The notes: generated by a model not told the origin, from the sequence alone. A stretch of 64,000 nucleotides of DNA from Clostridia bacterium (GCA_050950825.1 JBMNIH010000004.1:288001-352000), one strand, 5' to 3'; counted from the first letter of the stretch, positions 8,734-26,446 are shown. Translations and numbers: made by a program.

Positions 8734-9735
8734 ATGCGATTGGGAAAACAAACGGTTACATTCGAAAAAATGCCGTATATCACGGCAACGGCGGCCATTG
8801 TCGGCCCCTACGAAGGAGAAGGGCCTTTGAAGGACGGCTTTGACCGAATCATTGAAAACGACGATAACGGTGAAAAAAGCTGGGAGAAGGCCGAAACGAA
8901 ATTGATGCAGGACACGTACCATCTGCTGCTGCAGAAGGGCAATACGACGGAGAAAAACATCCACTACGTTCTTGCGGGAGATTTGTTGAATCAAAATATC
9001 GCATCAAGCTACGCTTTTCGAGATCGTGAATGCTCCTATTTAGGAATCTACGGTGCTTGCTCCACCTTCGGAGAAGCCGTAGGTATCGCTTCCATGATAA
9101 TGGCGGGAGGCTTTGCGGAGCAAATCATTTGTATCACATCCAGCCATTATTGCTCCGCCGAAAGGCAGTATCGATACCCCTTGGAATTTGCCACCCAAAG
9201 ACCGCCTACGTCCCAATGGACGGTAACCGGCAGCGGAGGGCTCTTGCTTCAAAAGGACGGAACCGGTCCCGTGGTGGAGATGTTTACCGCCGGCAAGATC
9301 GTGGACCAAGGTATAAAAGACGCCAACAACATGGGAGCGGCCATGGCTCCCGCCGCAGCGGATACCATCGCTACCCATTTTGTAGAAACCGGGAGAAAAC
9401 CGGAGGATTACGATTTAATCGTTACGGGTGATTTGGGAGCGGTGGGAACCGATATCTGCCGAGAGCTGCTGAAGCAATACGGCTTTGATGTGTTCGAAAG
9501 GCACGAAGACTGCGGCTTGCTGATGTACGATCGATCGAAGCAGGATGCACACAGCGGGGCAAGCGGCTGCGGATGCTGTGCAACGGTATTTTCGGCGTAT
9601 TTTTATCCGAAGCTTCGAAACGGAGAGCTGACCCGTATTTTATTTGTGCCTACCGGAGCTCTTTTAAGCCCCACCATTGTTCAGCAAGGAGAATCCATTG
9701 CGTGTATCGCCCATGCCGTGGCGATCGCCGGTTAA
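8734..9735 (+). CDS. spoVAD: Stage V sporulation protein AD (DPA-binding)
   Basis: EGEGPL, SWEKAE, AGDLLNQ, GACST, SAERQYRYPLE, NNMGAAMAPAA. Confidence 0.96.
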   Translation: MRLGKQTVTFEKMPYITATAAIVGPYEGEGPLKDGFDRIIENDDNGEKSWEKAETKLMQDTYHLLLQKGNTTEKNIHYVLAGDLLNQNIASSYAFRDRECSYLGIYGACSTFGEAVGIASMIMAGGFAEQIICITSSHYCSAERQYRYPLEFATQRPPTSQWTVTGSGGLLLQKDGTGPVVEMFTAGKIVDQGIKDANNMGAAMAPAAADTIATHFVETGRKPEDYDLIVTGDLGAVGTDICRELLKQYGFDVFERHEDCGLLMYDRSKQDAHSGASGCGCCATVFSAYFYPKLRNGELTRILFVPTGALLSPTIVQQGESIACIAHAVAIAG

Positions 9736-9764
9736 CAACCGACGCCGAAAGGAGAAATCGACTG

Positions 9765-10127
9765 ATGGGAGATAAATTGTTAAATGCATTTTTGGTAGGC
9801 GGCGCCCTTTGCGCCATTGGACAGCTGTTGATTGACAAAACAAAACTGACGTCCGCACGAATCATGGTGATGTATGTTACCTTAGGTGTGTTTTTGGGCG
9901 GACTGGGTATTTATCAAAAGCTGGTGGATATCGGAGGTGCGGGAGCTACCGTTCCCTTGATGGGATTCGGCTACAGCTTGGCGAAAGGAGTTATGAAGGA
10001 AGTGGACCAAAACGGTTTGTTAGGAGCTTTTACCGGCGGCATTAAAGCGACGGCCGGGGGAATCACCGCCGCCATTATTTTCGGATATATTGCTTCTTTG
10101 ATTGCCAAACCCCAAGGAAGGCGATGA
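9765..10127 (+). CDS. spoVAE: Stage V sporulation protein AE (SpoVAEb)
   Basis: AFLVGGALCAIGQLLID.T, GAGATVP..GFG; AAGGAG RBS before the ATG at 9765. Confidence 0.93.
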   Translation: MGDKLLNAFLVGGALCAIGQLLIDKTKLTSARIMVMYVTLGVFLGGLGIYQKLVDIGGAGATVPLMGFGYSLAKGVMKEVDQNGLLGAFTGGIKATAGGITAAIIFGYIASLIAKPQGRR

Positions 10128-10164
10128 TGGGAAAAGACGTCATTGAATAAAGCATGGAACGACG

Positions 10165-10197
10165 AAGCACGAAAATTTTGTTCGTGCTTGTTTTTTT
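10165..10197 (+). terminator. Intrinsic terminator of the spoVA operon
   Basis: AAGCACGAA-7 nt-TTCGTGCTT then GTTTTTTT. Confidence 0.8.
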
Positions 10198-10229
10198 GTT
10201 CGGATATTTATTCATTTATGGGCGGTTGA

Positions 10230-10258
10230 TTGACACAAAATGCCAAGTAAAGTATGAT
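10230..10258 (+). promoter_or_regulatory. sigma-A promoter at the left island junction
   Basis: TTGACA-17 nt-TATGAT, immediately followed by mid-gene addA sequence. Confidence 0.7.
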
Positions 10259-10760
10259 GCAAACCTGAGAGTTTTATATGACAGAGCGAGACAATTTGAG
10301 GAAACCGGCTATAAAGGCCTGTTTAACTTTATTAACTTCGTGGATAAATTAAAAAGCAGCCGGGGTGATATGGGAAGCGCGAAAATACTCGGCGAGAACG
10401 ATAATGTTGTGCGTATAATGAGCATTCATAAAAGCAAAGGCCTTGAGTTTCCTGTTGTTATTCTGGCAGGCTGCGGAAAACGGTTTAATCTTATGGATAT
10501 GAACAGTAGTATTCTTTTGCATCAGGAACCGGGATTCGGTCCTGATGTAGTTGACTGTTCAAAGAGAATCTCGTGGCCGTCTGCCGCGAAGCTTGGCATC
10601 AGAGAGAAGATAAAGACTGAAAATCTGTCGGAGGAGATGCGGATTCTGTATGTCGCAATGACCGGAGCCCGTGAAAAGCTTATAATAACAGGTTCTGTCC
10701 GGAATATAGAAAAGTCGGCTGCCAGGTGGAGCAGAACAGCTTCGGTTCAGGACGATAAAA
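10259..10760 (+). pseudogene. addA: Internal fragment of helicase-nuclease AddA (SF1 motifs V-VI)
   Basis: [41 protein letters not shown](G)AREKL. About 170 aa of a ~1200 aa protein, no real start, and the invariant Arg of motif VI is Gly. Confidence 0.85.
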
Positions 10761-11077
10761 AGCAATTTGAGAGAATCGAAGAAAAGAGGCCGGCTCTATT
10801 GTTTTCCGGAGAAATGTTGGGGAAATATGTAAACTTAAATGGACAATCCGATATATCTGCAAAGCTACATTTCCAAAAGGGCAACTATGTAAAATCTCCT
10901 GTAAGTTTATTTACTTATTATAGGAACAGTAGGGTTATGGAGTTCAGAGAGTTGAGATGACAGAAGCTGAAAAACCTTTATCTGAATGTAAGATTCCGGA
11001 GAGCATGATAAACATGTGTCACTATTTTATTTTAGCAAGCTTACGTAATAAATAAGTAAATACTCGGAAAGACAGGC

Positions 11078-11950
11078 TCAGGGGGTCCCGTAAAGCTTGT
11101 TTTTATACTCTGTGGGAGACACCCCGGTCTTCTTCCTGAACACACACGAGAAGTGACTAAGACTGCCGAAAGCACATAGATCACAAATCTGCGACATTGT
11201 ACAGTCGGTTTTTATTAACATATCCTTGGCTTTCTCTATTCTCACATTAAGCAAATATTCAAACGGAGTTATCCCTGTATGGCGTTTAAACAGCCTGAGA
11301 AAATGGTAAGGGCTGTAATGCGTTACATTCGCTATCTCAGCAAGGGTTAAATTATTCTGGTAATTATCGGTAATATATTCAATAGCTTTTTTAACAGCCG
11401 CATCATCGTAATAAGTAGCAGACCGAAAAGCTGAACCGGACAGATCGAGGCAACTCTCACGAAGAAGCATAACCGCGACCTGCAGCGCAATGCTTTCCTG
11501 CATCAGGGAAACTCCGGGCAGATCGGCGCTGCATTCCCGTATAAAAATATTCAAAAGCTCCCTCAGTGCAGGTGTTAACGCAAAGCAGCAGTTTTTCAGT
11601 AACGGTTCACTTATGCCGAATAATTCCTCCGCTGTTGATCGGATAAGCGTATTGTCCATATAAACAACCAAAGATTTAAAATCGGTGACTGCCATTTTTT
11701 CACCCCTGTAGGACTGCCCGGGATTACAGGGGAAAATGCTCATTTTCTTCAGAGCGCACCGTTTATTTTGAGTTATAACTACAGGCGCCTGTTTTAACGG
11801 AATCAGGAAGTAGTACTGTCCGCACGAAAATTCATCAAACATTAAATATGAGGTTTCAACTATCACCATTTTATCGCTTGGATATAAATAGGATTTAAGC
11901 ATATGACGGTCTGGAAATGTAGGTTTCAGCACAGATAACATATTTTCCAT
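11078..11950 (-). CDS. AraC family transcriptional regulator
   Basis: C-terminal double HTH LTLAEIA..SPYHFLRLFK..G.TP..RIEKAK..ICDLCAF.S.SHF..VFRKKTGVSP; GGAGG RBS. Confidence 0.92.
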   Translation of the reverse strand: MENMLSVLKPTFPDRHMLKSYLYPSDKMVIVETSYLMFDEFSCGQYYFLIPLKQAPVVITQNKRCALKKMSIFPCNPGQSYRGEKMAVTDFKSLVVYMDNTLIRSTAEELFGISEPLLKNCCFALTPALRELLNIFIRECSADLPGVSLMQESIALQVAVMLLRESCLDLSGSAFRSATYYDDAAVKKAIEYITDNYQNNLTLAEIANVTHYSPYHFLRLFKRHTGITPFEYLLNVRIEKAKDMLIKTDCTMSQICDLCAFGSLSHFSCVFRKKTGVSPTEYKNKLYGTP

Positions 11951-12113
11951 GATACTACCTCCGACGCAGCTTGCTTTTAAATATATTCTGCATTTGCTGC
12001 AGCCTGCTTTAAATATACCATAAAATACTATCAGTTGTCATTACTCAGCATGTGATTTTGTGGAAAAAACCGGTGATTATTTAAAATTCATTCCTGAAAA
12101 AACAAATAAAGTT

Positions 12114-12177
12114 CGCAATCATAATAAAACATTTGAGCAACTTTATGAAAATCATTCCATTATAGCTAACGTATAAT
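12114..12177 (+). promoter_or_regulatory. Putative AraC-activated promoter of the lipoprotein-giant protein operon
   Basis: Direct repeats CGCAATCATAATAAAA / AGCAACTTTATGAAAA 22 bp apart in place of a good -35, then TATAAT at 12172-12177; divergent from the AraC gene. Confidence 0.5.
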
Positions 12178-12360
12178 AATCAGGAAAACATGGGAATGTG
12201 TACGGGAGGCACCCCTATGAAAAACGTACAAATGGCTGATAACGAGGCGGAACAAGTGGCCGGTTTTGTGAAAAAAGCAGGCAGGGCTGCGAATATTCAT
12301 CAATCAGCAGATGCCGGCGAAGGAAATATTCTGCTTCGGCTAAGGATAGGCGGAATATAT

Positions 12361-12903
12361 ATGCCTCGAGCATTAATTCTTATAATGTTGCTTGCAGCAT
12401 TTATGCTTTCAGCCTGCGGGAAAACAGCGTCAAACAATGAAGGCGCGCCTGTTCGTTCGTCAATCATCGAACCCGAGCAGCTCATTTCCAAACAGGAAGC
12501 CGAAGATTTGCTAGGAGAGGCTGTCAAAGACGGCGAAAAGCGCGAACAGCCTGAAGTTGGGCAGAAAATATGCTTCTATGACATGCCATACAGAGATTCG
12601 GCTTATTTTGTTCAGATATCCATTACTCAGGCAGCGCTTATGCCTGCCTCCGGACAGACAGTTGAGGACATTTATAAAACGCTGAAAGAAGCGTTAATCG
12701 AAACGGCGGAGCAAAAAAAGATCGATGGAACAGGAGACGAATACTTCCTCGGAACCCCCGGTCTGCACATATTGAAAGAAGGGTACTATATTTGCATTGC
12801 TGCAGGCAACCTGAATGACGACAGGGTTCTCGGCATACCGGAGCAGGCCGGTGTACCGGCAGTTAATAATTTAGAAAAAATTCTAAGCGAGGTAAGAGAA
12901 TGA
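12361..12903 (+). CDS. Lipoprotein (resembles DUF3558-like sensor fold)
   Basis: Signal peptide with lipobox LSAC from the ATG at 12361; LISKQEAEDLLG..C.Y..IDGTGDE pattern; stop overlaps the start of the giant gene (ATGA). Confidence 0.7.
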   Translation: MPRALILIMLLAAFMLSACGKTASNNEGAPVRSSIIEPEQLISKQEAEDLLGEAVKDGEKREQPEVGQKICFYDMPYRDSAYFVQISITQAALMPASGQTVEDIYKTLKEALIETAEQKKIDGTGDEYFLGTPGLHILKEGYYICIAAGNLNDDRVLGIPEQAGVPAVNNLEKILSEVRE

Positions 12904-13337
12904 AAATTATTAAAAGTATTGTAAAATGGATTGGAACACAATTTCAGGTGCATACCGTCTATTCACTGCTTATAACGATAACGGCCGCCGCACTCGTCAC
13001 AGCGGGAATCCTTTGGATTCCCGGATTATTCAAGTCAGCCGAAACATCTGCTTACCTGCCCGATCGCGAGTATATTCTTGCCCCGGTTGAATATAAAGAG
13101 CCTCAAACCCTTGAAGAACTCCTTCACGTCAGGATATCAGAGCCGGATGTGGACACGTTGCTGCGCAATCCGGCGATTGCAGAAGAACTTATGAAAGCTG
13201 AAAAGCTGACTGATGTTGTAGATTCACGGCTTGCTCTGAACAACCTGCGCAACCTTGATCAGCAGCTCGCTGAGCGGATTGAACAGATGCAGAAATCCTT
13301 TGGTAAAAGCAATAAACCTGATGTTACGAACATTGAG

Positions 13338-13526
13338 CTTGCCGGAATGAGCAGTGAGACTGCCGAAACCGGCAATAGGCCTGCCGGGGCGGGCAGTAAA
13401 CCTGCCGGAACAAGCAATGAGGTTGATAGAGTGGGCAGTGAACCTGCCGGAACGAGCAATGAGGTTGCCGGAGTGAGCAGTGACCTTGCCGGAACCGGCG
13501 GAGAGCATGCCGGAACAAACGGTGAG
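13338..13526 (+). repeat. Nine in-frame 21 bp tandem repeats (7 aa units such as PAGTSNE)
   Basis: Units such as cctgccggaacaagcaatgag, cctgccggaacgagcaatgag, gttgccggagtgagcagtgac. Confidence 0.85.
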
Positions 13527-16500
13527 TCTTCCAAAGCATCGGCGGATACCATCAGCGCAGCAATAGACAATACGGCGGATCCGGCGAATGCCCCCTCTGC
13601 ACAGGAGGAGCAGATGCTTTCTGTCAAATCGGCAAATGCCCCGGCTGCACCGGCCAATCTGTCCGGTATATCGACCAATCTGCAGGAAATGTCATCATTT
13701 TCCCATGGCATTGCCATACAGGCAACAGGCGAGCTTGCAGTACCGGAAAAGGAGCTGGAACAGCTGAACCAACTCCTTTCAGGGCTGAAAAATGCGACAG
13801 GACGGCTGCTTGAACCAAAGGAGTACAGCGATGACCTTGTGTCAATTCCGTCTGCAATGAATATGAAGGCTATATGGCAATCACCGGACGAGGCGCTTGT
13901 CCATATGACCCCATCGGGAGACTGGATCCCCGAGCAGGGCTACAAGCTTTACAGGAAAGTTGAAGGTCAGGAAGTTCTGATCAACGAGAGTGCTTTGTCG
14001 CCGGTACCCATCCTGTCCGGAGAAATTCAGATTGCCGATGCTGATATGATAAAGGCACTTTACAAGCAAGCGGAGCTGACGCCGGAAAAACTGAAAGTCC
14101 TGGATATGACCGCTGAAGAGTTCAGGGATAAGGCCTACCGCGTTGATTCCCTCACGCCGAAGGAACGCATAGGCGGCAAAGTGGACTTCCTCGCAATGAA
14201 AGAGGCGCTTATTACAGTTCCCGCAAGCATGGAGCAGAAAATTCCCCAAACAGACATTATGTTTGGTTTTCCTATATACATTCAGGATAACATTTCGATT
14301 TATCAACATAATTTCTCTGAATTGAAAATTAATCTTATGCAGAAGTTTTCACTTGTTCATGCTGCGCAGCCGACCGGTATCAGAGGATTTACACAGCTTC
14401 CTGACGGCGCAAAAAAAGTGAAGCTGACCAAAGATATCATGTCAGCCCGGCAGCAGATTTCCACGCTCGCTTTCGTTGATGATGAGTTTGCGGAAAAAGC
14501 CGGATTCTTAGTCCGCGATGATCTCTCAGCGCTTAACCTGTCAAATGGTACGAGGGTTCAGTATATCGTCGAAATGCCTGACGGCAGTCGGTCATTCGTT
14601 AACATTACCCACGGAGAGGAGAAAAACCTTACAAAACCGCAGGAGCTGATGGGTTACGGCATTGACGGTAAGGTGATGCTACGCTGGGATGTGCCGCAGG
14701 ACGAGGAAGAAAGAAGCATTGTAAGCGGTTATCATATTGAGCGCAAGCTCGAAGATGAAACATCGTTTACTAAAATTACGGAGCAGCCCGTTGCAATTTC
14801 TTACATACTTGACGAACACGATATGTATTTTGAGTTGCCGGTATTCTTTGAAGACGAGGTCGAGGACGGCCTTACGGCTGAATACCGTATTTATTCGATT
14901 GATGTATTCGGCCGGAGCAGCGAGTATTCGGATGCTGCCAGCGTAACAGTCTATCGCGTTACGCCACCGAACGCGCCCGTTATAGAGTCACCTGCGTTAT
15001 CGGGCAAACCGGAACCGGTTGTGAATTCGACACAGATGCAAGGTACTTCAGCGAATACCGGTGAGAGTTCGGTCAGTGCAGTTTCCTGGTCAGGTGTTGT
15101 ACATTTGCCCGGGTCAGTCCTTCAGGATGCAATGGAACTGAATAAATATAAACCCGGTATCGTTCTGCCGATTTTTACCGATACGCCCGATACTGTGCGC
15201 TTCACGATATACCGTGCCAAAGCAGTCGGCGCGGAAAGTTTCGGACCTCCGGAGATCCTCGCTGACATCTCCTATGATAACCCGCGTCCGCCGAAGCCTC
15301 AAAGTTTTGTAGACGAAGGCGAAGACGACGAATTTGATGCCGGGCCGTCTCAAATTGAAATGCTGGATACTGCCGCCTCTTCCTCTTCCCAAAAAGAGCT
15401 TAAAAGATCTGAAGACGACGGCGATGGCGGTACTGTTGACAGCCGGCCGGATCAAATGAAAACGCTGAATAAGCCTGCCTCTCCCAAAACAATGCAAAAA
15501 AAGAGCAATAAAGGAATACATGTCGTGTTGGCTGAGTACAGTCCTCACCAACCCGATCTGGTCTATTTTGACTCAGATGTTGAAGAAGGTTGTACATATA
15601 AATACTGGGTCTCGGCCTGGGATAAATGGAATAATGAAAGCGCATGGTCACAATCGGTCACAATGGGCATTCCCACCAAGAAAGAGCCTGAGATTCCGAA
15701 AGAGATTGATATAGCGATGCATGTACGCAGGCTTCCTGATCGCTCGTTTGCCCCTCCCGGGATGCTCGTCAACGGTCCGATCCAATATGCCAAACTCCCG
15801 AACTCCGGCGCAAAGACACTTATGTCCGGTAACATTGAATGGAGCTATGCCGGAGTAGACTTCCCCGACCGGAATTACCCGGACGGGGCTGTCCTCGGCA
15901 CGGTTGAAAATGCTATCGCCGACAAAGCCCGAATAGGAGGATTTTTACTGGATGACCGTGTTCCGGCAGTGATCGATGCGGAGTATGACAACCTGCCTGA
16001 TCGCAAGTATATCCATAAGTTTGTAGGAGTGAAAGGTGAGGATGTGCTGTCCGGCGGCATTGCTGTCCTCAGATGGCCGGCCTATACGGGAGAAGGTCTC
16101 GAAGGCTACGCCGTCTACCGTCCGCTGTTTACCCCGAAAGCCTTGGAGGAAATGCAGCAGATGTCCTACAGTGAGCTCGTGGCTATGGGCAGATGGCAAC
16201 TCGTGAATGATGAGGTAATCAAGCAGAATCAGCTTATGCTGAGCGGGCTTGACGATACACCCGGAAGTCTGTCGCTGTTCCTTGTCTGTACTCGAGCCCG
16301 AAAAAGAGCCGGAGGATACATCCGCTGTATCCGATGATGAAAGCCTCAGCGCGGACCTTCCCGAGGGTGGTCATGTCTTTCTAAGCTGGGATAAACCCGA
16401 CGACCCGCAGGTGCAGTATTACCGCGTCTACCGCAGCGAGGTGCCCTCGTTTAAAGAGCCTGTTGACGAATCAAAGCTCGATTGGACTCTGGTCGGTGAC

Positions 16501-17832
16501 CGCATTGAACACAACCGGTTCACACACCGTGTGGAGCAGAGCTTTGCGCACTATTACTATTACAAAATCACATCGGTGTCCCCATGGGGCGTTGAATCGA
16601 TGGAAGGCCGGATACAGCGCTTCCGCGTACCCGCCACAAAGCCCCCGGATACTCCCAACCTGCTTTTGCCGCTCTCGACGAAGGACGGCGTGAAGATAAA
16701 TTTCTCGGCGGTACGGCATTGCGACCGCTATGAAATATGGCGTACACCGATACCAATACATTCGATGGAGGAAGTCAAAGAATTGGCAAAGACGCATCCG
16801 GAACTGTACGAGGCTCTGTTCGGGTCTCCTGATACGTCTAATGAGGATTTCATCAATAACTATTTTGACACGCTGAGCAAAGAACGCGAATCAGCCCAGT
16901 CGCAGTATGTACCCATGCAGTTCGCCTCCAGGTCCGGCGAGTCTGTACCGATGCAGCTCACCTCAGGCTCACCGGAAGGACTTGGGTTTATGTCAATGCC
17001 GTTTACGGTAGGTCTTTCAAATCAGGAGCCTGCAATGTCAACGGCGGCTAAACCGGGACTATCGAATCCGTCCCGGGTCAGAACGCTAAATCCTGTCGGC
17101 AAATTCAAGACGCTTTCGATTTTCAACATCTCCTCGGTTAAGAGGAATCTCGAAGCTCTCTCCTTGGAGAAGAAACTGAATGTCTATAATATAATTCTCG
17201 ACAAATACGGCCCCCTTGCGATTGCCGATTACTCACAGCTAAGCTGGGAGATGAGCAGGCGGGTTAATTGGGAAAAGATAGGTGAAATTCTCGCTGACTA
17301 CACCACGACCGAAACAGTCGATCCGGCCACCGGGCTTTTAAAGCCGCTGTCGTTCACCGACAAAACCGCGCAGTACGGCGTCCTCTATCTTTATACCGTC
17401 CAGGCATGGAACGACGACAACCTCGGTTCCACGCGGCCTGAGCCGGTGATAGCCACGCCGCGCAGAAATGGTCCGTTTGACCCCATCGACGGTCTAAAAG
17501 GGGAAATTGTCAATGGAGTTCCGACGCTCGTATGGAATACGCCAAAAATGAAAAATGTTTTGCCCGAAAAGTGTCTTGAGGATACGGTAGGTTATATCGT
17601 ATACCGCTCGGACACGAGGGATGGCACATACTATCAGGCAAGCCCGCTGCTCTTCGAGAATAGATGGGTCGACACCGAAGCTGACAGGAACGCCTTCAAC
17701 TGGTATAAGGTCAAAGTTCTTGATACGGGCGGATATCTCTCGGATTTCTCCGAGCCGGTACTCATTCAGCAGACCTTCATAACCGATATGGTGACCGTTA
17801 TTCCCAAGTTTGATCTGCCCGACAACATAGTC

Positions 17833-18425
17833 ATAGCGCCGAGAATAAGCTTTGACGGCAGCAATTTTACGGCAGACGAAGGCATGGTGTTTGAAACCTC
17901 ATACAGCCTTTCGGGCACCGATCCAATTACCGTTACTCTTAAGGCTGCTGACAGTAAAGGCGCCGAGGTAGACGGATTTGCGGTGAATGCTGCTTCACGC
18001 AGGGTAACGGCTTCATCAAAACTCGGAGCAGGAACTTATACAGTTACGGTAACGGCAACAAACAGCGCAGGAGAAAGCAAGGCTTCGTTCACACTTACGG
18101 TAAAGCCCAAAATAGTAATTACAGAGCCCAATATAACGGATATACCTCTTGTTGTGAAACCTAAAATCACATTTGACAAAAGCAGCTACAATGCCGTTGA
18201 GGGTACAGCGTTTGAAACCTCATACAACCTTACGGGCACCGAGCCCATTACAGTTACTTTGAAGGCTGTCAACGCCAAAGGCAGCATAATCCGCACCATT
18301 AGGGCGGATGCGGACTCACGGAAGGTAATCGCTCCGTCGACGCTTCCCCCTGATACCTATACAGTGACGGTGACGGCAAAAAACAGTGCCGGAGAAAGCT
18401 CAGCTTCGTTTATGCTAACGGTAGT
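17833..18425 (+). repeat. Two duplicated Ig-like domains in the giant protein
   Basis: P.I.FD.S...A.EG..FETSY.L.GT.PITVTLKA ... TYTVTVTA.NSAGES.ASF.LTV occurs twice, with DNA similarity (tttgaaacctcatac...cctt.cgggcaccga). Confidence 0.8.
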
Positions 18426-21400
18426 GCCATCGGGTGAGCCCCCGAAGCTTTCCGAACGCGATGACGGTTACCGGTTTAAGATGTACCTGGCACTATTCGG
18501 ATCGAATGATTTCACGGTACAGTTCTCCGCGTCGGGTACCGAGCCCCTCGAATGGTCGCTTGAGCCTTATAAGGAAATAAGTATTCCTGATGAGATAACG
18601 ATAAACGACAGGGGGCTTTTAACTGTTAAAAACACTGTAAAAAAGGGTACTTACCGGTTTGTTGTAAAAGTCGGCAACAAATTCGGATCAGATGAAAAGA
18701 CCGTTTTTCCGGATGTTATGCCCCTGCTTCAACCGGATGTCACGAAGAAGCCGGATAACTCGATTATACCGAGGGATTCTCTTCCACCGATTGTCACGGT
18801 CGCATCCACGCCCACGCCCGGCCCGTTTATAATAAAGTCTATAGGCTTTCTCGACACAGTTTCGGTAAGCGGTGCGGGTACCGTGCATACAAACGGAAAC
18901 ATCAATGCGGCGTCAGAACTCCCACAGGTTGAAATATTCGATTATACGAGTAACTATGTGAAATGCATGAGCTTTACTCTGAGCGATGTGAAGCTGAATG
19001 GCGGGCAAAACGCTTATTACGGCACGGCAATGCTGAATCTCGGCGGAGCAACCGTACCGGTATATATTATACGGGCCGGTATCTCACATCTAGGCGGAGA
19101 GGATATCATGACCGATGGCTCTGTTTTTATCGAACAGCCTTTCGAACTATCGGCTGTCGGCCTGACGCTCGTATCTCTCGACATCTCGCCTCATGCAAAT
19201 TATGCGAAGGTCTCCGGATATATAAAAAGCACGGTCACGGGCAGCAACCTTGCCGGTGATTTATATTCGCTAAAATTTGAAGATGCGAACCTTACCCCGG
19301 GTACAATCACAATAAGTAAAAATCTGCCCGATATTCGCTACAGGCAGTTAAAAATATACAATATAAAAACCATTGTTATAAACCTTAATGCCGCACAACA
19401 ACAGGGAAAGGATTTGCTCTCGCTGCAGGAACCTGACGTTGCTATGAAATTCCACCTCGAAACGCTCAGCAACGAAGGACTGGAGTTTGAGACAGACAAT
19501 TCGCTTTCATTTGATACACAGGGCAGGCTTAGCGGTCGCATTTTTACGAATAAAGAACAATTCCTGCAACTGCTCGTACCGGGCGGTGCAGGACTTAGGG
19601 CAGGCGCTGCCGAGCTTGAGATTGCCGACGGAGAGTTTAAATCAAACGGCAAGCTTATAGGCAAGCTCGTGATACCGTTTGAAAAGACAACCACACAGGG
19701 TCCTCTTGTACCGGCTATTTATGCGGGCGCGCATCCGGCGCACAGCGAGCTGGACGACCTGGCGTCCGGCAGCGGAGTTCTTTCGCAGGAGCATCAGGAT
19801 GCGCTGAATAATTCGCTCGTACACTATGGTCAAAAGGTGCAGCAAAACAGTCTCCTTATCCTGCCTAAATCCTTTGAGCTGCAGGATAAATGCGCATCGG
19901 CCTCTATCTACCTCGTTGACTGGAGCGGAGAGGGTTTTGTGATTAAATCGGCGACCATGGATAATGTAAGGGTGACCAACCGAAACTTATCCGGTATAGA
20001 TAAGCTGGGCGATTTTGAGGTGGGTGACTATTATCAGCGCGAACAGGCTCTTATCCTCAGTGGGGGCAGCGATAAGCTCGGATATGATGTGTCCATAGAT
20101 CTCAGCCGGGAAGATAGTCTGCCGAAAACGGGAAATACGCAGGGTCAAAACAATGATACGGAGATATTGACTCCGAAGGAAACCGAAAAACCATTTTGGG
20201 TAGGCATTGTTGTCGGGAAAGCAGAATTGGAGCTGCCGTCGAAATATCTCCGGCAGGCCGACGGCAGTATTATTCGGTTCAACCTGGCAGAGGGCGAAAT
20301 GCTCTATGACCTTAACGGATTCAACTACCAGACCTATCTGTACGGCAGCGACCCGGAGGGTGTGCCGGCACAGTTCGGGGATAACCTGGGCGGTTTTAAG
20401 GATGTTCGTATCAAGGACTGTCTGCTCGACCTTTATGCCAACACAGTCAATCTCGAAATAAACGCGACGGTCAGGGTTGAAATCCTTCAGAACGAAAAGA
20501 TGGAAGCTAAACTCTACACCGACAAAAGCGGAGAATTCATCTGCTCGGTGGCGCCAACGAATGTTGCGCTGGCAAAGGGCATCAATATGAAAATAGCCGG
20601 GGGTTTTTTTGAAAAAGAAGGGATGCGTATAAGCGGCGAGATGATGCTGCCTGCTGAAGGATTCGATGCAGTCACGAAAGACCCGCCGGGCTTCACTGAT
20701 CTGACCATTCCAAGCAGTCTTGACGCGGTAACGCCTGGAATTGCTGCAAAAAGCGCAGCCGCCGTTGTGCTTGACAAGCCGGTGAACATCAACTTTAAAG
20801 GTTTCCCGATGGAGGTGCGCGAATTTGAGCTGAGATACAGGAAAAAACCGGCTGCTGTTTTTCAGTTTCCGGGAGATACGAAGAGATACGATTCGATACA
20901 AATAACGCTGCGAGGCGCCACACGGCTTTCCGATAATATTGCGCTCTCACGCGATACGACTGACTCTCTTGCAATAAAATGCAGCTTTGCGGACCGTGGT
21001 GCTCCTCCGGACGCGATGCCGGAACCGGTTTTGCTGTATGAAGAATCCAAATCCGAGCTTAACACATCCTTTGACGGCTGCATCGACATTACGGCAAAGA
21101 AGCTAATCCCGAAGAAATTGCCGCAAGGCAGCCAAACGGGAGGCCTTGTGGAGTTTGAAACAGACGGGCTCGACCTGAATTTCCTCGGTCAAAGCCTTAA
21201 GAGCCTGCCGGTAACAGCTAAAACCCGATTCGGCAAGCAGCCGGACGGCAAATTCTATTACGCTGTCGGGCTGACGCCTCAAAATGGGCAACCCATCAAT
21301 TTCGGCGCCGGTGATGTGGATAACTTTACGGGACTGGTTGCGTATAATATGGCTGTTGGCACCGATGAACAGGGAAGGTACCGGTTCCCTGACAATCCCG

Positions 21401-22581
21401 GCCAGATGAGTGCATACATTGATAATCTGGCGGTAGGCGGCGGTAAATTTGTGGGCGGTATCAAGGGTGAGATGAATGTCACCGGCCTGTGTAAAATCAA
21501 AAACCTGTATTTCGGCTTTGAGTCCGGACCATCAGTCAGGGCAGAGGGTGACCTGTACCTGCCGCTCAGCATAAGGTCCATCGTTGAGGGACAGCCTGAT
21601 AAATTCATGGGCAAGGCATCCATCTGTTACCGACACCAGGATCGCTACCTCTCTTTCAGCATGACCCTTGAAAGAATAAATGTAGTTTTGGCCGAACTCG
21701 GCGGAAGTCTGGGCTTTGAATACAGCCCCAGCCTGTTTGGGGTTTACCTTGGCTATCCCGAGACGCTTGCAGGCAATATTGGCATATTCCATGTCGGAGC
21801 CGGAGTAGGATTCCGTTACGATTGGGATGAGGAAGCAGGCATGATTCAGGCCAAGATTGAATTCGGCCTTGAAAAGAACCTGAATATTGCTATTGTTTAT
21901 CTCAGAGGCTATCTCTATGCAGGTGCCGATGGGGCATATTACTGGAGCCATGACGGCAGCAGTATTACGCTGACGCTCTATCTGAAGGGAGGCATTGAAG
22001 GCGGTGTCAAGATCGGAGGTAAACGGTTCAAGGTTATAGGCTTTTATCTGGATGCCCAGGGTACTTTGGTATCAAGTCCGGGATTTGACAAATGGAATCT
22101 CGCATGTTCTGCAACCGTTGCTTACAGCGTCGATGTATTCCTGTTCGAGGTCGAAGGCTCGGTCACTGCCGATTTCGCAACTACAATAGGCTGACGCCAG
22201 GCGTATCGATATTGCAGACTGTCTGTTCAGATGTGTAATGAAGAACTATTGTACGATAACGGAAACAAAAGCTTCATTTGCGAAGTATATATAATTTCCT
22301 AATATTGTACAGTAGTTTTTCACATGTATAGTACTGCTCATGTGGATTCATAACGCTCATTTCCTAATATAACCTTATTTTGAATGAGTTTTTACTCTTT
22401 ATTATATCTGATATACTAGCCAAACCCTCAATTTTTCAGTATAGGAAGCGCAGGAAGTCCACCCGGTACAGCGTATAATTTTCCGAACGATGATTTCCAG
22501 TCTTTTTATCCAGGGATTGAGTAACGGTTGCAATGCAATATTTTTTTGACTCCCCTTAACAAAAAAATCCGGGTAAATTTT

Positions 22582-22732
22582 ACAAGTAAAGGCTTACGGG
22601 GATTCTACCTGTTATCAGGAAAATGCATATGTTGGTATTCAAAAATGAATTGACGTATAAATTCGTCAATTTGGGTGGTACCGCAGAAGCTATGGCTTTT
22701 GTCCCATATTTTGATGGGATGAAGGCTTTTTT
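22582..22732 (+). promoter_or_regulatory. T-box riboswitch, 3' half only (stem I/specifier missing)
   Basis: AGTA box, CCTGTTATCAGG stem IIA/B, stem III TTGACG..CGTCAA, T-box AATTTGGGTGGTACCGCAG (22668-22686), antiterminator partner GTCCCA, terminator hairpin plus T6. Confidence 0.8.
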
Positions 22733-22784
22733 ATACATTTTTTTGTTATACCGAAAACGCCAAAGGTGAGTGACATTAGTACAT

Positions 22785-24220
22785 CGCCGGCGTATGATAG
22801 CCGAAATGGACGAAGGCCGAATCGGCACGATTATTGTAAAAGACATGTCGAGGCCGGGGCGAGATTATCTGAAGGTCGGCTATTACACCGAAGTCGCATT
22901 CCCCGATGCCGATGTGCGCTTCATTGCCGTCAACAACGGCGTGGACAGCGCAAACCAGCAGAAAAGTGATTTTACTCCTTTTTTGAACATCATAAACGAA
23001 TGGTATGCTAAGGATACGAGCAAGAAAATACGCGCTGTGTTTAAAGCTAAGGGAGAGTCCGGTAAGCCACTCTGCACCAATCCGCCCTACGGATACATAA
23101 AAGACCCGGAGGACAAAATGCGCTGGATAGTGGACGAAAAAGCCGCTGAGGTGGTCAGGGTGTTTTTCAAAATGTATATGGAGGGCTTCGGACCCACGCA
23201 GATAGCGAAAACCTTGAGAAGAATCAAATTGAAACACCGACGGTTCACCTGAACAGTATGGGCATTAAGACTCCCGCCAAGCAGACGGAAACGCCTTATG
23301 CATGGTCAGCGCGTACGGTAGCAGACATTCTCGCAAAAGTCGAGTATCCGGGACACACGGTGAATTTCAAGACTCGCAAAAAATCTTACAAGAGCAAGGA
23401 GAAGATTTGGAACAATCCCGAAGACTGGATGGTGTTTGAAAACACACATGAAGCCATCATCGACGAACATGTCTGGGAAACCGTCCGGAAAATACGAGAT
23501 GGTAAACGCAGACCATCTCGCATGGGTGAAATGGGTGTATTCTCCGGCATGATGTTCTGTGCGGACTGCGGGGCGAAGCTGTATCAGGTCAGAGCCAATG
23601 GCCGGACGCATGACAAGGAATACTTCGTCTGTGCTACCTATCGCAAAAAGAAGGGTCTGTGCAGTTCGCACCAAATACGCAATGTGATAATTGAGGAACC
23701 GGTACTTGATTATTTGCAGCAGATCATAACCTTTGTGAAGGAACACGAGCGAGATTTCATCACAGCCGCCATGAAAAGTTCAGAAAGGCGGATTACTGAA
23801 GACCTGCGCATGGCACAGAAGGAATATGAGCAGGGACAGGTGAGAATTTCCACACCGGATAAAATCCTGAGGAAACTGTATGAAGACCGTGTAATGGAGA
23901 GAATTTCGGAGGAACGTTACTATAAAATATCATCGGACTATGAAGCCGAACAGAGAAGCCTCGTGGAGAGAGCCACGGTATTGAAACAGACGCTAGATGC
24001 CGCAAAGGAGGAGAATCTGAACATCGACCGTTTTCTCAAAATCGTACGCAAGTACACGGAAATTACAGAGTTAAGTGCTGAAATTATTCGGGACTTCATC
24101 GAGAAGATAATCGTGTATAAGGCTGAAAAGGTAGATGGTGTTCGAACCCCGCGAATTCGAATCATTTACAATTGCATCGGAGCAATAGATTTTCCGAAAA
24201 TGGACGAAAAAACGGCATAG
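22785..24220 (+). pseudogene. Large serine recombinase (TnpX/TndX-like; recombinase, zinc ribbon, DUF4368-like C-terminus), 5'-truncated and frameshifted
   Basis: IVKDMSR.GRDY, PPYGY.KDP, ENTHEAII, CADCG..YFVC..C.SH, IEKI.V...IRIIYNCIG. The catalytic Y.R.S N-terminus is absent; frameshift near 23212 (the other frame restores EKNQIETPTVHLNSMG). Confidence 0.88.
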
Positions 24221-24267
24221 CCGCTATTCACGACTATGCCGGAACTTTTCAGGGATATAAAATCCCT
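24213..24267. repeat. Two inverted repeats at the probable right end of the element
   Basis: CGGCATAGCCG-7-CGACTATGCCG overlapping the recombinase stop, then AGGGAT-5-ATCCCT. Confidence 0.55.
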
Positions 24268-24285
24268 ATGTGAGGACAGCTTTCC

Positions 24286-25545
24286 ATGTCTTTTTATCTT
24301 TCCTCGCTTAACGGTCTTGAAAAAGAAATCATTCGGGAGCTTGAAAAGCTCTACATTTACGATTGTCACGAGCATCTGCCGCCGGAAAAAGGGCGCCTTA
24401 AACAAAAGCCCGACGCCTTTACGCTGTTTTCCCACTACTGCCAACACGAGCTCTACACCGGAGGAATGGACAAAGAAATCATGGCCAAAATCCTTTGGCA
24501 GCCGGGCGATATCGATTGGAAGTGGAAAACCTTCGAACCTTTTTACAAGCAAATGAAGCACACGAGCTATTGCCGAGCGGCTCATATCACCATGGAAAAG
24601 TACTACGGCGAAAAAGAGCTGACCGCGAAAAACGTACATGCCGTCAGTGAACGTATACAAAAAGCCAATACGCAAGGTCTTTACGACTGCGTACTTCGAG
24701 AAGACTGCAAAATCATCGCTTCCATTAACTGCGACGGTCCCTTAGACGATACCCATTCGGGATTGATTCGCCAAACCGTAAGAGCCATCGACTATATTTA
24801 CTCCTACAAGGACGTTTTGAAAAAGTTTGGCGACGGCGAAACGTCTATCGATTCCGTGGACGATATATTAAAAGCGTGCGAAGGCTACATCGTAAATGTC
24901 AAAGAAAAAGGTGCCGTCGGCGTTAAATACATGTCCTTCTACATCGATGGGGCGACAAGAGAAGATGCGCAAAACACCCTTAAAAGGCTTAAGAACGATC
25001 CTTCTTTGGTTTTACCTCGAAGAAATCCTTTGAATGAATTCGTTTTGACGTCCCGGCTTCGCATGACGCATGATAAGGGTCTTGTCAACTGCATGCATAC
25101 CGGCTATCGGAACGATTATCGGGAGCTTTCTCCCGCCAATCTACTCCCCTTTATCATGAAAAACCAAGACGTGAAAATCGACATCTACCACGCAGGCTAC
25201 CCTTACGTAAGAGAAGCCATTATGCTAGGCAAGGTTTGGCCGAATATTCGAATGAATATGTGCCGGACCTACTTGATCAGCCAACGATTTGCATTCGACG
25301 CTTTGGACGAAATGCTCGAAATGCTGCCGGATAACAAGATCATCGGTTTCGGCGGTGACTATTATGTCGTGGAAAAGGTATTCGGGCATCTTGTTATGGC
25401 CAGAGAAACCATTGCTCGCGTTCTTGCGAAGAAAATACAAGACGGGTACTTGTCTTTAGATAGAGCCTTGGAAATCGGAAGAAAAATGCTGTACGACAAT
25501 CCGAAGGAATTTTACGGATTCAAAGACGTGGGTTTCAACGTGTAA
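24286..25545 (+). CDS. Amidohydrolase-superfamily protein (uronate isomerase-like), possibly decaying
   Basis: DCHEH metal motif, MHTG, YHAGYPY, KIIGFGGDY; two Arg at positions expected to be Trp (GYRND, NMCRT). Confidence 0.7.
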   Translation: MSFYLSSLNGLEKEIIRELEKLYIYDCHEHLPPEKGRLKQKPDAFTLFSHYCQHELYTGGMDKEIMAKILWQPGDIDWKWKTFEPFYKQMKHTSYCRAAHITMEKYYGEKELTAKNVHAVSERIQKANTQGLYDCVLREDCKIIASINCDGPLDDTHSGLIRQTVRAIDYIYSYKDVLKKFGDGETSIDSVDDILKACEGYIVNVKEKGAVGVKYMSFYIDGATREDAQNTLKRLKNDPSLVLPRRNPLNEFVLTSRLRMTHDKGLVNCMHTGYRNDYRELSPANLLPFIMKNQDVKIDIYHAGYPYVREAIMLGKVWPNIRMNMCRTYLISQRFAFDALDEMLEMLPDNKIIGFGGDYYVVEKVFGHLVMARETIARVLAKKIQDGYLSLDRALEIGRKMLYDNPKEFYGFKDVGFNV

Positions 25546-25596
25546 ATCCTTTTCTTGTGATATAATTTGTTCAAATGAAAAGAACGGAGAGATACA

Positions 25597-26430
25597 ATGA
25601 GCAAAGCGGATCGAATCTTCATTGATATGTGTCAAGATATTTTAGAAAACGGGTACAGCTCCATAGGGGAGAAGGTGCGCCCCGTATGGACGGACACCGG
25701 GGAGCCGGCCCATACCCTAAAAAAGTTCGGCGTTGTGAATCGCTATGATTTATCCGAAGAATTCCCGATTCTGACTTTACGTCCTACTCGATTGGACAAG
25801 GCCGTAGACGAGCTTCTGTGGATCTGGCAGAAAAAATCCAATAACGTGAAGGATTTAAACAGCCGGATATGGGATGCGTGGGCGGATGAAAACGGATCCA
25901 TCGGAAAAGCATACGGATACCAATTGGGTATCAAGCACAAGTACAAGGAAGGGGAATTCGACCAAGTGGACCGGGTTCTTTACGATTTGAAGCACAATAA
26001 ATACAGCAGAAGAATCATTGTAAACATGTACAATCATGCGGACCTTCATGAAATGAACCTTTATCCTTGCGCATACTCCGTCACCTTTAACGTGACGGGA
26101 AATCGCTTAAACGCCATTTTGAACCAGCGGTCGCAAGACATCTTGGTAGCGAACAACTGGAATGTATGCCAGTATGCCGTATTGGTCCACATGTTCGCCC
26201 AAGTCAGCGATCTTGAGCCGGGAGAATTGGTTCATGTAATTGCCGATGCCCATATTTACGATCGGCATATCCCCATCATCGAAGAATTGATCAAGCGTCC
26301 CGTTTACGATGCGCCTCGGTTTGAGATCAACAAGGATATCAAGGATTTTTATCAATTCAAGCCGGAGGATTTTAAATTGATTGACTACAAAGCCGGTGTT
26401 CAAATTAAAAACATTCCGGTAGCGGTATAG
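25597..26430 (+). CDS. thyA: Thymidylate synthase
   Basis: ELLWIW, IWDAWADE.GSIGKAYG, SRR, LYPC, NQRSQD, HIYDRH, C-terminal PVAV; extended -10 TGATATAAT upstream. Confidence 0.96.
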   Translation: MSKADRIFIDMCQDILENGYSSIGEKVRPVWTDTGEPAHTLKKFGVVNRYDLSEEFPILTLRPTRLDKAVDELLWIWQKKSNNVKDLNSRIWDAWADENGSIGKAYGYQLGIKHKYKEGEFDQVDRVLYDLKHNKYSRRIIVNMYNHADLHEMNLYPCAYSVTFNVTGNRLNAILNQRSQDILVANNWNVCQYAVLVHMFAQVSDLEPGELVHVIADAHIYDRHIPIIEELIKRPVYDAPRFEINKDIKDFYQFKPEDFKLIDYKAGVQIKNIPVAV

Positions 26431-26446
26431 GCAAAGGAGGTATGAA

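Follow-up and report, generated by a model that had tools for sequence, protein, structure and literature searches.

The locus analyzed here raises the question of why conserved residues in apparently unselected genes are replaced by proline, arginine or glycine exactly where the DNA spells CCGG. The window, i.e. the whole stretch of 64,000 nucleotides that was analyzed, belongs to G000, the genome of a digester bacterium (Clostridia; 97% complete, 11 contigs). The initial annotation listed 11 such sites and proposed that a CCGG-specific methylase together with T:G repair over-corrects CTGG and CCAG to CCGG and thereby rapidly erodes incoming genes. All 11 coordinates read CCGG in the window sequence, and the inferred ancestral residue is present in homologues at 10 of them, 12856 being weak; the deviations are therefore real.

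One-way conversion to CCGG in a recombinase remnant

The recombinase features, all placed by alignment to homologues, are:
22787..24290, + strand: large serine recombinase remnant, 5'-truncated and frame-broken
22789, 22855, 23349, 23487, 23603, 23700, 23856: the seven changed bases, CTGG/CCAG to CCGG
22905: TTGG to TCGG, opposite strand
22955, 23123, 23473: surviving CTGG/CCAG

By profile search, the remnant contains Resolvase (from position 53 of 145), Recombinase, Zn_ribbon_recom and DUF4368 domains. Its catalytic domain is incomplete, with homology to intact genes beginning at 22787 and the frame broken near 23207-23257. In 11 aligned homologous loci of 87-96% nucleotide identity, the base changed at sites 22854, 23348, 23485, 23602, 23699 and 23855 is T or A in all 11, and site 22787, which was absent from the initial list, is a seventh of the same pattern. 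Overall, 7 of the 11 ancestral CTGG/CCAG words became CCGG, three were kept and one became CCCG, while AT>GC transitions are found at 2 of the 730 other A/T sites (Fisher p=5e-13). Because of this difference, chance is excluded as the cause of the pattern, and CTGG-to-CCGG change is commoner than other transitions. Among neighbouring contexts, conversions number 0/16 for [AGT]TGG, 1/12 for CCA[ACT], 0/15 for CTG[ACT] and 0/23 for [AGT]CAG. Ancestral CCGG was kept at 3/3 sites (losses 0/3), making the record one-way. In other words, 64% of the ancestral words were converted at a background change of ~0.8%; the relative rate is ~370x that of other T>C changes and ~125x that of all substitutions. 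The remnant also carries 12 further substitutions and two indels unrelated to the word, although the G inserted at 24241 also yields a CCGG.

The signature in other genes of the window

Beyond the recombinase, the relevant features are:
10154..10960, + strand: fragment of a second, foreign addA (helicase 2A region), with 46% identity to the resident addA of contig C2; CCGG is created three times, by 10307 A>G (S>G), by 10530 T>C (L>P) and, in motif VI, by 10664 A>G (R>G)
12361..12903, + strand: lipoprotein ORF; 12839 T>C (L>P, strong) and 12857 possible L>P (weak)
15605..15608, + strand: surviving CTGG, a Trp codon in a giant surface-protein ORF; CCGG in two other runs
24286..25545, + strand: amidohydrolase (PF04909), frame open; invariant Trp>Arg at 25264 (CTGG>CCGG) and 25108 (TTGG>TCGG)

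In the alignable core of the AddA fragment (aa 36-200), five residues depart from the consensus of at least 80% among 12 homologues, three of them at CCGG. These homologues have L at 10529 in 11/12 cases, R at 10664 in 12/12 and, at the CCAG>CCGG site 10307 that the initial annotation overlooked, S in 10/12. In the lipoprotein, L160P is the sole departure from the consensus of at least 80% among 40 homologues; at 12838 these homologues, of at most 56% identity, have L in 38 cases and M in two. The column at 12856 is variable (L14, K12, T7, I5, M1), and because of this variability the change at that site is weakly supported. In the amidohydrolase, W is found in 12/12 homologues at both 25264 and 25108 (W275R), and all cluster members read have R at both. 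Two conversions, the TTGG>TCGG changes at 25108 in this gene and at 22905 in the recombinase, lie off the word. Together, our data support a true, directional and word-specific substitution process that, in unselected DNA, turns Leu, Trp, Gln, Arg and Ser codons into Pro, Arg and Gly codons. The erosion of foreign genes proposed initially is seen for remnants, whose death it may have either caused or followed.

Strain variation was found at 15606, which reads T>C in the run contigs X8 and X14 and not in X9 or X10. Among ~31 variable sites checked as protein polymorphisms in five ORF clusters, where few CTGG sites remain, one is of this type, i.e. lipoprotein G191S (CCGG/CCAG), a count too limited to carry weight.

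The substitutions are not an assembly artefact

Alternatively, the signature could reflect a systematic base-calling error at the methylated word in a long-read assembly. The assembly does have indel noise, rRNA and IS copies differing by many gaps, and the window carries one extra base at 16288 relative to the contigs of all four other runs compared. However, RpoB, RpoC, S12, S7, EF-G and EF-Tu together have four unique departures at columns invariant in relatives, all conservative and none at CCGG, and the 20 kb with the genes of these six essential proteins contains 48 CTGG/CCAG and 140 CCGG. Moreover, the exact ORF sequences are present on 28, 16, 2, 28 and 3 contigs (NCBI, JGI/IMG, Logan), and independent contigs of JGI, Logan and ENA contain the same ORFs; at the sites in AddA, the lipoprotein and the amidohydrolase, the X8, X9, X10 and X14 contigs, from four studies, all agree with the window wherever they cover them; and the fragmented assemblies G001 and G002 have the same bias. 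For the recombinase, other organisms contribute so many intact homologues to the other runs that contigs over the interval 22820-24255 show their letters alone and are uninformative on the window's allele. The pattern is neither confined to one assembly or technology nor blind to selection. An assembly or long-read artefact is already contradicted by these data and is excluded, in line with the initial preference for stochastic mutation over base-calling error.

Genome-wide footprint

Because the nearest genome, G001, is 73-80% identical and too distant to polarise DNA changes, amino-acid and codon-context tests were used; a metagenome population scan yielded one conspecific contig (1.9 kb) among seven loci, which is too little. 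The impression that host genes are rich in CCGG was confirmed: the genome has 21,108 sites, 2.6x the zero-order expectation, with CTGG/CCAG at 0.39x. By a maximal-order Markov model the value for CCGG is 0.85, i.e. there is no over-representation, since its component words CCG and CGG have a 2x enrichment of their own. In 2188 long ORFs, counts in synonymous frames are 119 xCT·GG vs 8190 xCC·GG and 92 CCA·G vs 7327 CCG·G (dots mark codon boundaries), a ratio of ~70-80:1 (69:1 and 80:1) in favor of CCGG. Where conversion alters the protein, surviving words number 3469 (CTG·G), 1398 (C·TGG), 884 (xCC·AGx) and 942 (C·CAG). Short intergenic DNA has 689 CCGG vs 106 CTGG/CCAG, with an expected ratio of 0.28, and CCA makes up 3.1% of Pro codons. 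For xCN, the ratio of C to T falls from 68.8 before GG to ~8 before GA or GT and to ~1 if C or T follows, a hierarchy that resembles relaxed Vsr specificity.

The repeat survey covered 29 families with at least three copies and 340 singleton substitutions, most of them from nine divergent families that possibly diverged before arrival; since singletons do not reveal the direction of change unambiguously and the many columns with gaps point to assembly noise, only the zero count of the young families was used. In these, 0/741 sites were converted, with ~22 expected, and for this reason the mutator may be extinct, having ended recently, rather than currently active. Of the rapid, ongoing conversion envisaged initially, the rapidity agrees with the rates in the recombinase, but the continued activity does not agree with the young repeats.

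An orphan methylase, an endonuclease relic and the search for vsr

G000 has one intact orphan C5-methylase (PF00145, 329.8 bits), located on contig C10, in which motifs I, IV, VI, VIII and X are conserved. Over its full length it is 58-74% identical to the methylases adjoining RE_HpaII in 8/10 full loci, with vsr adjacent in 7/10, and from this homology its specificity is predicted to be CCGG. Comparison with PDB structures was also tried as a route to specificity and was set aside, as the match is limited to the catalytic half of M.HhaI and does not give it. On contig C4, a 59-codon ORF (G000:C4:37398-37574) matches the last 40 positions of the RE_HpaII profile (320-359 of 359, 45.5 bits). 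This relic abuts an IS256-family element whose seven copies are 99.6-100% identical, i.e. a young IS. The methylase is solitary, lies on a different contig from the relic and has no intact RE_HpaII beside it.

In G000, no Vsr was matched by the Pfam profiles for Vsr (PF03852) and DUF559/MTES_1575 (PF04480, PF18741), by tblastn with the Vsr of six relatives or by a custom HMM of 12 Vsr searched against 66,428 six-frame ORFs (best E 0.36). In G002, vsr adjoins a gene whose orthologue in G000 has thrS beside it, and a synteny search there revealed no vsr remnant. The function of DUF1848, which adjoins the methylase, is not addressed in the titles and abstract openings of the papers listed for it. 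G000 also encodes DNA glycosylases: Nth, MutY, a protein resembling Ogg and three UDG paralogues of family-4 type, of which one scores under the cut-off of the family. Thus, of the elements of a VSP system, the genome has a C5-methylase (specificity by homology) and the one-way T>C record, and a Vsr gene was not found by these searches; the methylase half of the initial proposal is borne out by an apparently intact, HpaII-like enzyme, but for its repair half the expected gene was not found.

Among relatives, the association between cassette and footprint is not clean. G013, which has Vsr, methylase (M) and R.HpaII, shows a CCGG/(CTGG+CCAG) ratio of 3.1, and in genus g9 two cassette genomes have 3 CTGG-type of 37 synonymous-frame pairs vs 17/49 in one genome without the cassette (p=0.004). 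The synonymous-frame CCGG:CTGG ratio is 49:0 in G000 and 44:1 in its congener G001 (control before GA/GT, 50:59), which has no Vsr match yet the same footprint. Avoidance of xCT·GG extends to several relatives that have neither Vsr nor HpaII (G011, 44:6; G008, 33:0; G004, 10:7, with 9:86 before GA/GT), and among genomes with M and R and no Vsr, G399 has 5:0 and 7:0 and G344 has CCGG 0 vs 40.

Proposed mechanism and alternatives

Given substitutions that are directional and word-specific, a footprint across the genome, a methylase of HpaII kinship and the endonuclease relic, we suggest, with moderate confidence, that the best reading is a VSP-type (Vsr-type) bias in which T:G is over-corrected to C:G in connection with predicted HpaII-type CCGG cytosine methylation. 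In this model, the HpaII-like C5-methylase would methylate CCGG in this lineage, and a T:G-nicking activity would normally restore deaminated 5-methylcytosine by returning the CTGG/CCGG mismatch to CCGG. The same activity would also act on replication errors at true CTGG/CCAG sites, always toward C:G, and these sites would then mutate near the pre-mismatch-repair error rate, ~100-400x other sites. In selected genes, synonymous conversions alone would reach fixation; in unselected DNA, i.e. gene remnants and recent arrivals, all conversions would fix, with L>P, W>R, Q>R, R>G and S>G as the outcome. The vsr gene would have been lost with most of the HpaII cassette in a recent IS-linked deletion. 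For E. coli, the accessible part of one paper states that Vsr stimulates CTAGG-to-CCAGG mutation (PMC2715241, citing Doiron 1996). What speaks against this reading is that neither G000 nor G001, with its shared footprint, has a vsr-like gene that we could find, that cassette and footprint are not cleanly associated among relatives, that relic and methylase lie on different contigs and that the maximal-order Markov model gives no excess of CCGG.

The missing gene would be accounted for if the same correction were made by an enzyme not recognizable as Vsr, such as a mismatch glycosylase or a nuclease of a new kind, whose gene is still present in genus g1. G000 and G001 have almost no synonymous-frame CTGG, a skew that should decay fast under methylation without repair, and the glycosylases of G000, the CTGG/CCGG strain polymorphism at 15606 and the divergent, unlinked Vsr-like protein that the available sections of a Caulobacter paper describe (PMC12907096) would all fit such an enzyme. 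However, the methylase neighbours differ between G000, G001 and G002 and include no candidate T:G-repair gene, the young repeats lack the conversions that an encoded enzyme should leave, and with assemblies that are 97% complete vsr may simply be unassembled. We regard such an enzyme as unlikely, if a serious contender. Its fullest form, in which a Vsr-unrelated, CCGG-directed enzyme acts throughout genus g1 at ~100-400x background as a standing word-specific mutator that rapidly inactivates any incoming CTGG/CCAG-rich gene, strikes us as quite improbable; if true, bacteria would have a counterpart of fungal RIP that does not depend on repeats, and it would be a dominant driver of codon usage (Pro CCA 3%).

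In 1995, Yang et al. reportedly observed mismatch binding and blocking of repair by the methylases HhaI and HpaII. A present and intact methylase might accordingly act with no dedicated repair at all, binding T:G at its site and shielding errors from mismatch repair. Such shielding would be symmetrical, fixing C>T at CCGG and T>C at CTGG equally often, whereas the record is one-way (7 gains vs 0/3 losses, and the strong skew at synonymous sites), and we give it very little credence. Even less plausible is sequence-specific deamination of adenine to inosine in CCAG on DNA, or other base editing, in place of mismatch repair: A>G in CCAG and T>C in CTGG are one event read on opposite strands, and editing would go with the failure to find Vsr, but the word that is hit coincides with the one recognized by the resident methylase family, a match expected from the repair model and not from the editing model.

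Significance and relation to known systems

At the level of substitutions, these observations are direct evidence, drawn from natural populations, that the neutral evolution of a bacterial genome can be dominated by a site-specific repair bias, with one tetranucleotide fixed at 2.6x expectation, one proline codon nearly abolished and conserved Leu, Trp, Gln and Arg destroyed in unselected genes within ~1% background divergence. The old idea of VSP mutagenesis thereby becomes quantitatively testable beyond E. coli, and the converted fraction of CTGG could serve as a fast clock for dating gene arrival. For annotators, Pro, Arg or Gly at conserved positions in such lineages is a sign of decay, not of sequencing error. 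The missing vsr is itself a lead, pointing either to a loss driven very recently by an IS or to a T:G repair enzyme not yet described. The case looks like a very strong instance of a known repair side-effect without the expected repair gene found. In the open-access literature, with subscription papers and supplements outside the scope, we found no described CCGG/Vsr compositional effect.

Classic papers on composition under VSP repair are said to be those of Bhagwat and McClelland in 1992, Merkl in 1992 and Glasner in 1995. The E. coli Dcm/Vsr system, which converts CTWGG to CCWGG and skews oligonucleotide abundances, shares with the present case, according to the accessible part of its description (PMC2715241), the T:G to C:G direction, a hit word equal to the methylase word with T for the methylated C, weaker effects on related words and a composition footprint. 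It differs in that the word here is CCGG and not CCWGG, the effect is far larger, radical residue changes are directly visible in remnants and no vsr was found in the genome. With the HpaII-type V-M-R cassette, in which vsr occurs in 7/10 full loci of the class sample, G000 shares the methylase and the RE_HpaII relic; unlike in the cassette, the methylase stands alone, 59 codons beside an IS on another contig are what is left of the endonuclease, and no vsr was found. Kulakauskas et al. in 1994 reportedly described a vsr homologue adjacent to the original HpaII system. In Caulobacter, ScmA and the unlinked, Vsr-like VsrA likewise combine a solitary C5-methylase, CCGG within its motif and an unlinked gene for a T:G endonuclease; in contrast to G000, the motif is 8 bp long (YGCCGGCR), the Vsr-like gene is detectable and the topic is fitness and SOS induction, with no account of compositional or pseudogene erosion in the available sections (PMC12907096). 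Finally, aberrant repair by thymine-DNA-glycosylase at mammalian CpG islands, from TpG/CpA to CpG, is similarly T:G-directed, creates CpG in a context-dependent manner and shapes composition; as far as the accessible part of that work goes (PMC4041421), it differs in being eukaryotic, in using a glycosylase opposite damaged adenine, in its dinucleotide context and in its far weaker skew.

Results

Decaying genes carry a directional substitution

The initial annotation had proposed that genes decaying in the window depart from their families through changes of CTGG or CCAG to CCGG. CCGG is present at all 11 coordinates it named, in four unselected or odd genes; at each, a residue of the family consensus is replaced and one T>C change on either strand accounts for the difference. 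The ancestral states it assumed were tested gene by gene against actual homologues. For the recombinase remnant, scanning a single genome of each species yielded 80 loci, of which 11 have 87-96% DNA identity and are alignable over window positions 22787 to ~24290. Against these, the window has 21 unique differences (19 substitutions and two indels) where all or nearly all homologues agree. Seven of the substitutions, including all six proposed for this gene, convert CTGG/CCAG to CCGG. These changes and those in the AddA fragment are:

22789, 22855, 23349, 23487, 23603, 23700 and 23856: recombinase remnant, CTGG/CCAG to CCGG
10307: AddA fragment, S52G, CCGG-making
10529: AddA fragment, L126P, CCGG-making
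10664: AddA fragment, R171G in motif VI, CCGG-making

With the five closest loci as ancestral state, the 11 ancestral CTGG/CCAG words of the recombinase have become CCGG in seven cases and CCCG in one, and three are kept. This spectrum bears out the proposed bias: at the remaining A/T positions only 2/730 underwent AT>GC transitions (Fisher p=5e-13). Neighbouring contexts are unaffected ([AGT]TGG 0/16, CCA[ACT] 1/12, CTG[ACT] 0/15, [AGT]CAG 0/23) and ancestral CCGG is retained in 3/3 cases; a G insertion at 24241 likewise makes CCGG. CTGG/CCAG is thus converted to CCGG at ~370x the rate of other T>C changes and ~125x that of all substitutions. Because the remnant is only ~4% diverged from homologues in other taxa, its conversions are younger than the split from the congener G001. 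Contig depths show this element family to be very common in digester communities: in sequencing runs X8, X9, X10 and X14, intact homologues over 22500-24300 have a summed depth of 500-1000, compared with ~5-16 for the host stretch.

In the alignable core of the AddA fragment, five residues deviate from the consensus (at least 80%) of 12 homologues, and the three listed make CCGG, among them the predicted L126P and R171G. The fragment (10154-10960) has only 46% identity to the genome's own addA (C2:126055-126510) and is therefore what remains of a second addA, of foreign origin; ~35 codons at its start and ~65 at its end do not align in register with AddA. In the lipoprotein, the proposed L>P at 12838 is the sole deviation from the consensus (at least 80%) of 40 distant homologues, while L>P at 12856 is weakly supported, the column being variable. 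The amidohydrolase has nine deviations, two of which replace an invariant Trp by Arg, at 25264 (CCGG, as proposed) and at 25108 (TTGG>TCGG). A second TTGG>TCGG change lies at 22905, and CTGG is therefore the main target of the process, with slight leakage to related words.

The footprint is genome-wide and old

The expected skew in composition extends to the whole host genome (G000), in which CCGG occurs 21,108 times, 2.6x the zero-order expectation, and CTGG/CCAG is at 0.39x; CCG/CGG is at 2.0x and CpG at 1.29x. A maximal-order Markov model gives 0.85 for CCGG because the constituent trinucleotides are themselves enriched. In 2188 long ORFs, only 0.8% of xCN codons preceding GG end in T (C/T 68.8); the C/T ratio is ~8 before GA/GT, 2.5 before GC and ~1 before C/T. 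The proline codon CCA makes up 3.1% of Pro codons, and CCG/CCA is 80 before G. Surviving CTGG/CCAG lies in frames where conversion alters the protein (a dot marks the codon boundary: CTG·G 3469, C·TGG 1398, xCC·AGx 884, C·CAG 942), and the counts in the two synonymous frames are 119 and 92 CTGG/CCAG versus 8190 and 7327 CCGG. Short intergenic DNA (GC 0.357) has 689 CCGG and 106 CTGG/CCAG, against an expected ratio of 0.28. This pattern is a mutation-selection balance under strong one-way pressure. The two other family members have CCGG/(CTGG+CCAG) ratios of 2.0 and 2.5, compared with 0.0-1.5 in most other families, and xCC·GG:xCT·GG counts of 44:1 and 40:1 with balanced controls; thus, the pressure is old as well as recent.

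The changes are not a sequencing artefact

A base-calling error that rewrites half of all CTGG would ignore selection. Comparison of the rpoB-rpoC-rpsL-rpsG-fusA-tuf region with that of 18 relatives showed that, where every other genome agrees, G000 has only four residues of its own (N>S, T>S, A>S, I>L), none of which lies at CCGG; each of the other genomes has between 6 and 75 such deviations. The 20 kb rpoB-to-tuf stretch of G000 holds 48 CTGG/CCAG and 140 CCGG. Proteins identical to those of the five odd ORFs are encoded on 28, 16, 2, 28 and 3 contigs in NCBI, JGI/IMG and Logan assemblies, and the window stretch is present in 18 runs from 17 studies of bioreactor, digester and sludge metagenomes. 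Contigs of four runs differ from the window at 0-7 positions over 9500-22819 and 24256-26500, none of them affecting the sites in AddA, lipoprotein and amidohydrolase; inside the recombinase, they carry only the abundant intact homologues of other organisms, which do not bear on the window's allele. The assembly is not free of errors, as an extra base at 16288 relative to all four runs indicates, and this base reflects an indel made in assembly or else a frameshift specific to the strain. Essential genes, independent contigs and the agreement of four runs nevertheless uphold the initial preference for mutation over base-calling error, and the changes are not an artefact.

Without the base at 16288, the giant surface-protein ORFs at 12900-16337 and 16249-22194 would probably form one. 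Across the genome, near-identical repeat copies, rRNA operons included, differ by many single-copy gaps and few substitutions, which points to the kind of indel noise that long-read assemblies usually have. Other length differences are variation among strains: 14 window bases at 17855 are missing in X8, X9 and X14, the first giant ORF of X8 lacks 84 bases (13402-13487) inside its Ala/Gly/Ser-rich repeat, and 6 extra bases follow 15289 in X10.

A cassette-type methylase, a truncated HpaII gene and no detectable vsr

G000 encodes one C5-methylase (C10:25427-26398), with all catalytic motifs kept and no adjoining restriction gene. On the opposite strand upstream (C10:23927-25217), its neighbours are a GNAT-like ORF and a DUF1848 protein (337 bits); a BNR/sialidase-like protein follows downstream. 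No one of the three is a conserved neighbour in G001 or in G002, another genome compared. Among 399 genomes of the class, RE_HpaII was found in 13. All 10 full-length loci have an adjoining methylase and seven an adjoining vsr, and genome G013 has the textbook order Vsr-methylase-RE_HpaII. The G000 methylase is 58-74% identical over its full length to the methylases of eight of these loci and 39-40% to those of two. This kinship places it in the HpaII-cassette type, and from its sequence it most likely methylates CCGG. The thirteenth match is in G000 itself:

C4:37398-37574 (outside the window): C-terminal relic of an HpaII-type endonuclease, 59-codon ORF whose profile match (45.5 bits) is confined to the last 40 positions

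The start of the relic coincides with the end of an IS256-family element (C4:36064-37574 region), one of seven copies with 99.6-100% identity; thus, an HpaII cassette was probably cut down by a young IS. The left flank is likewise repeated, at C4:457660 and C5:141096.

Of the enzymes anticipated initially, the methylase was found, together with generic glycosylases (three family-4-like UDGs, Nth, MutY and an Ogg-like protein), while a search of G000 detected no vsr. UDG paralogues lie at C2:528704-529883 and C2:277428-278027; two are in tandem and one falls under the family cut-off (109.8 versus 125.3 bits). No vsr was found in a search of G001, and G002 has one.

Twenty young repeat families (226,813 site-copies) include 741 site-copies of CTGG/CCAG, and conversion to CCGG was seen at 0 of them, compared with ~22 expected at the recombinase-derived rate from a clock of 54 singleton substitutions, some of which may be assembly errors that would shorten it. 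Together with the IS-truncated relic, this suggests that the activity was lost recently. Position 15606, CTGG in the window and CCGG in X8 and X14 (Trp/Arg in a giant surface protein), is evidence of at least one conversion event within the species.

Discussion

Within the word of the methylase, Vsr cuts one strand on the 5' side of a T mispaired with G, after which repair returns the pair to C:G; where T was the correct parental base, a T>C mutation is fixed. In E. coli, Vsr raises CTAGG-to-CCAGG mutation (PMC2715241). The substitutions reported here most likely reflect over-correction of this type, from T:G to C:G, at CCGG. A Vsr-like activity would catch T:G replication errors ahead of general mismatch repair, and mutation at such sites would then run at the rate of uncorrected errors, higher by two to three orders of magnitude, which agrees with the observed 125-370x. 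A symmetric process, such as shielding of mismatches by the methylase, does not fit the one-way direction of change, the identity of the hit word with the methylase's site or the weaker effect on words that differ at an outer position. That an unrecognised enzyme other than Vsr does the correction is in play, since G001 lacks vsr and yet has the full footprint.

Across genomes, a link between cassette and footprint is only suggestive. In genus g9, CTGG-type words make up 3/37 synonymous-frame pairs in two genomes with Vsr, methylase and RE_HpaII and 17/49 in a genome without the cassette (p=0.004). The 6.6 kb rpoB locus of G344, with methylase and RE_HpaII and no Vsr, has 0 CCGG versus 40 CTGG/CCAG and counts of 0:12 and 0:16 in its synonymous frames, a mirror image of G000. 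Against the link, G399, with the same two genes and no Vsr, also avoids xCT·GG, as do several genomes with neither gene.

Over-correction by very-short-patch repair that skews oligonucleotide abundance in E. coli is a known kind of effect. The new elements here are the word CCGG and the effect size, the direct sight of amino-acid erosion in gene remnants, a codon nearly lost and the absence of vsr. We found no published description of such a CCGG effect in the open literature. A related idea connects TDG and CpG islands (PMC4041421), and in Caulobacter a Vsr-like gene unlinked to a solitary methylase has been described (PMC12907096).
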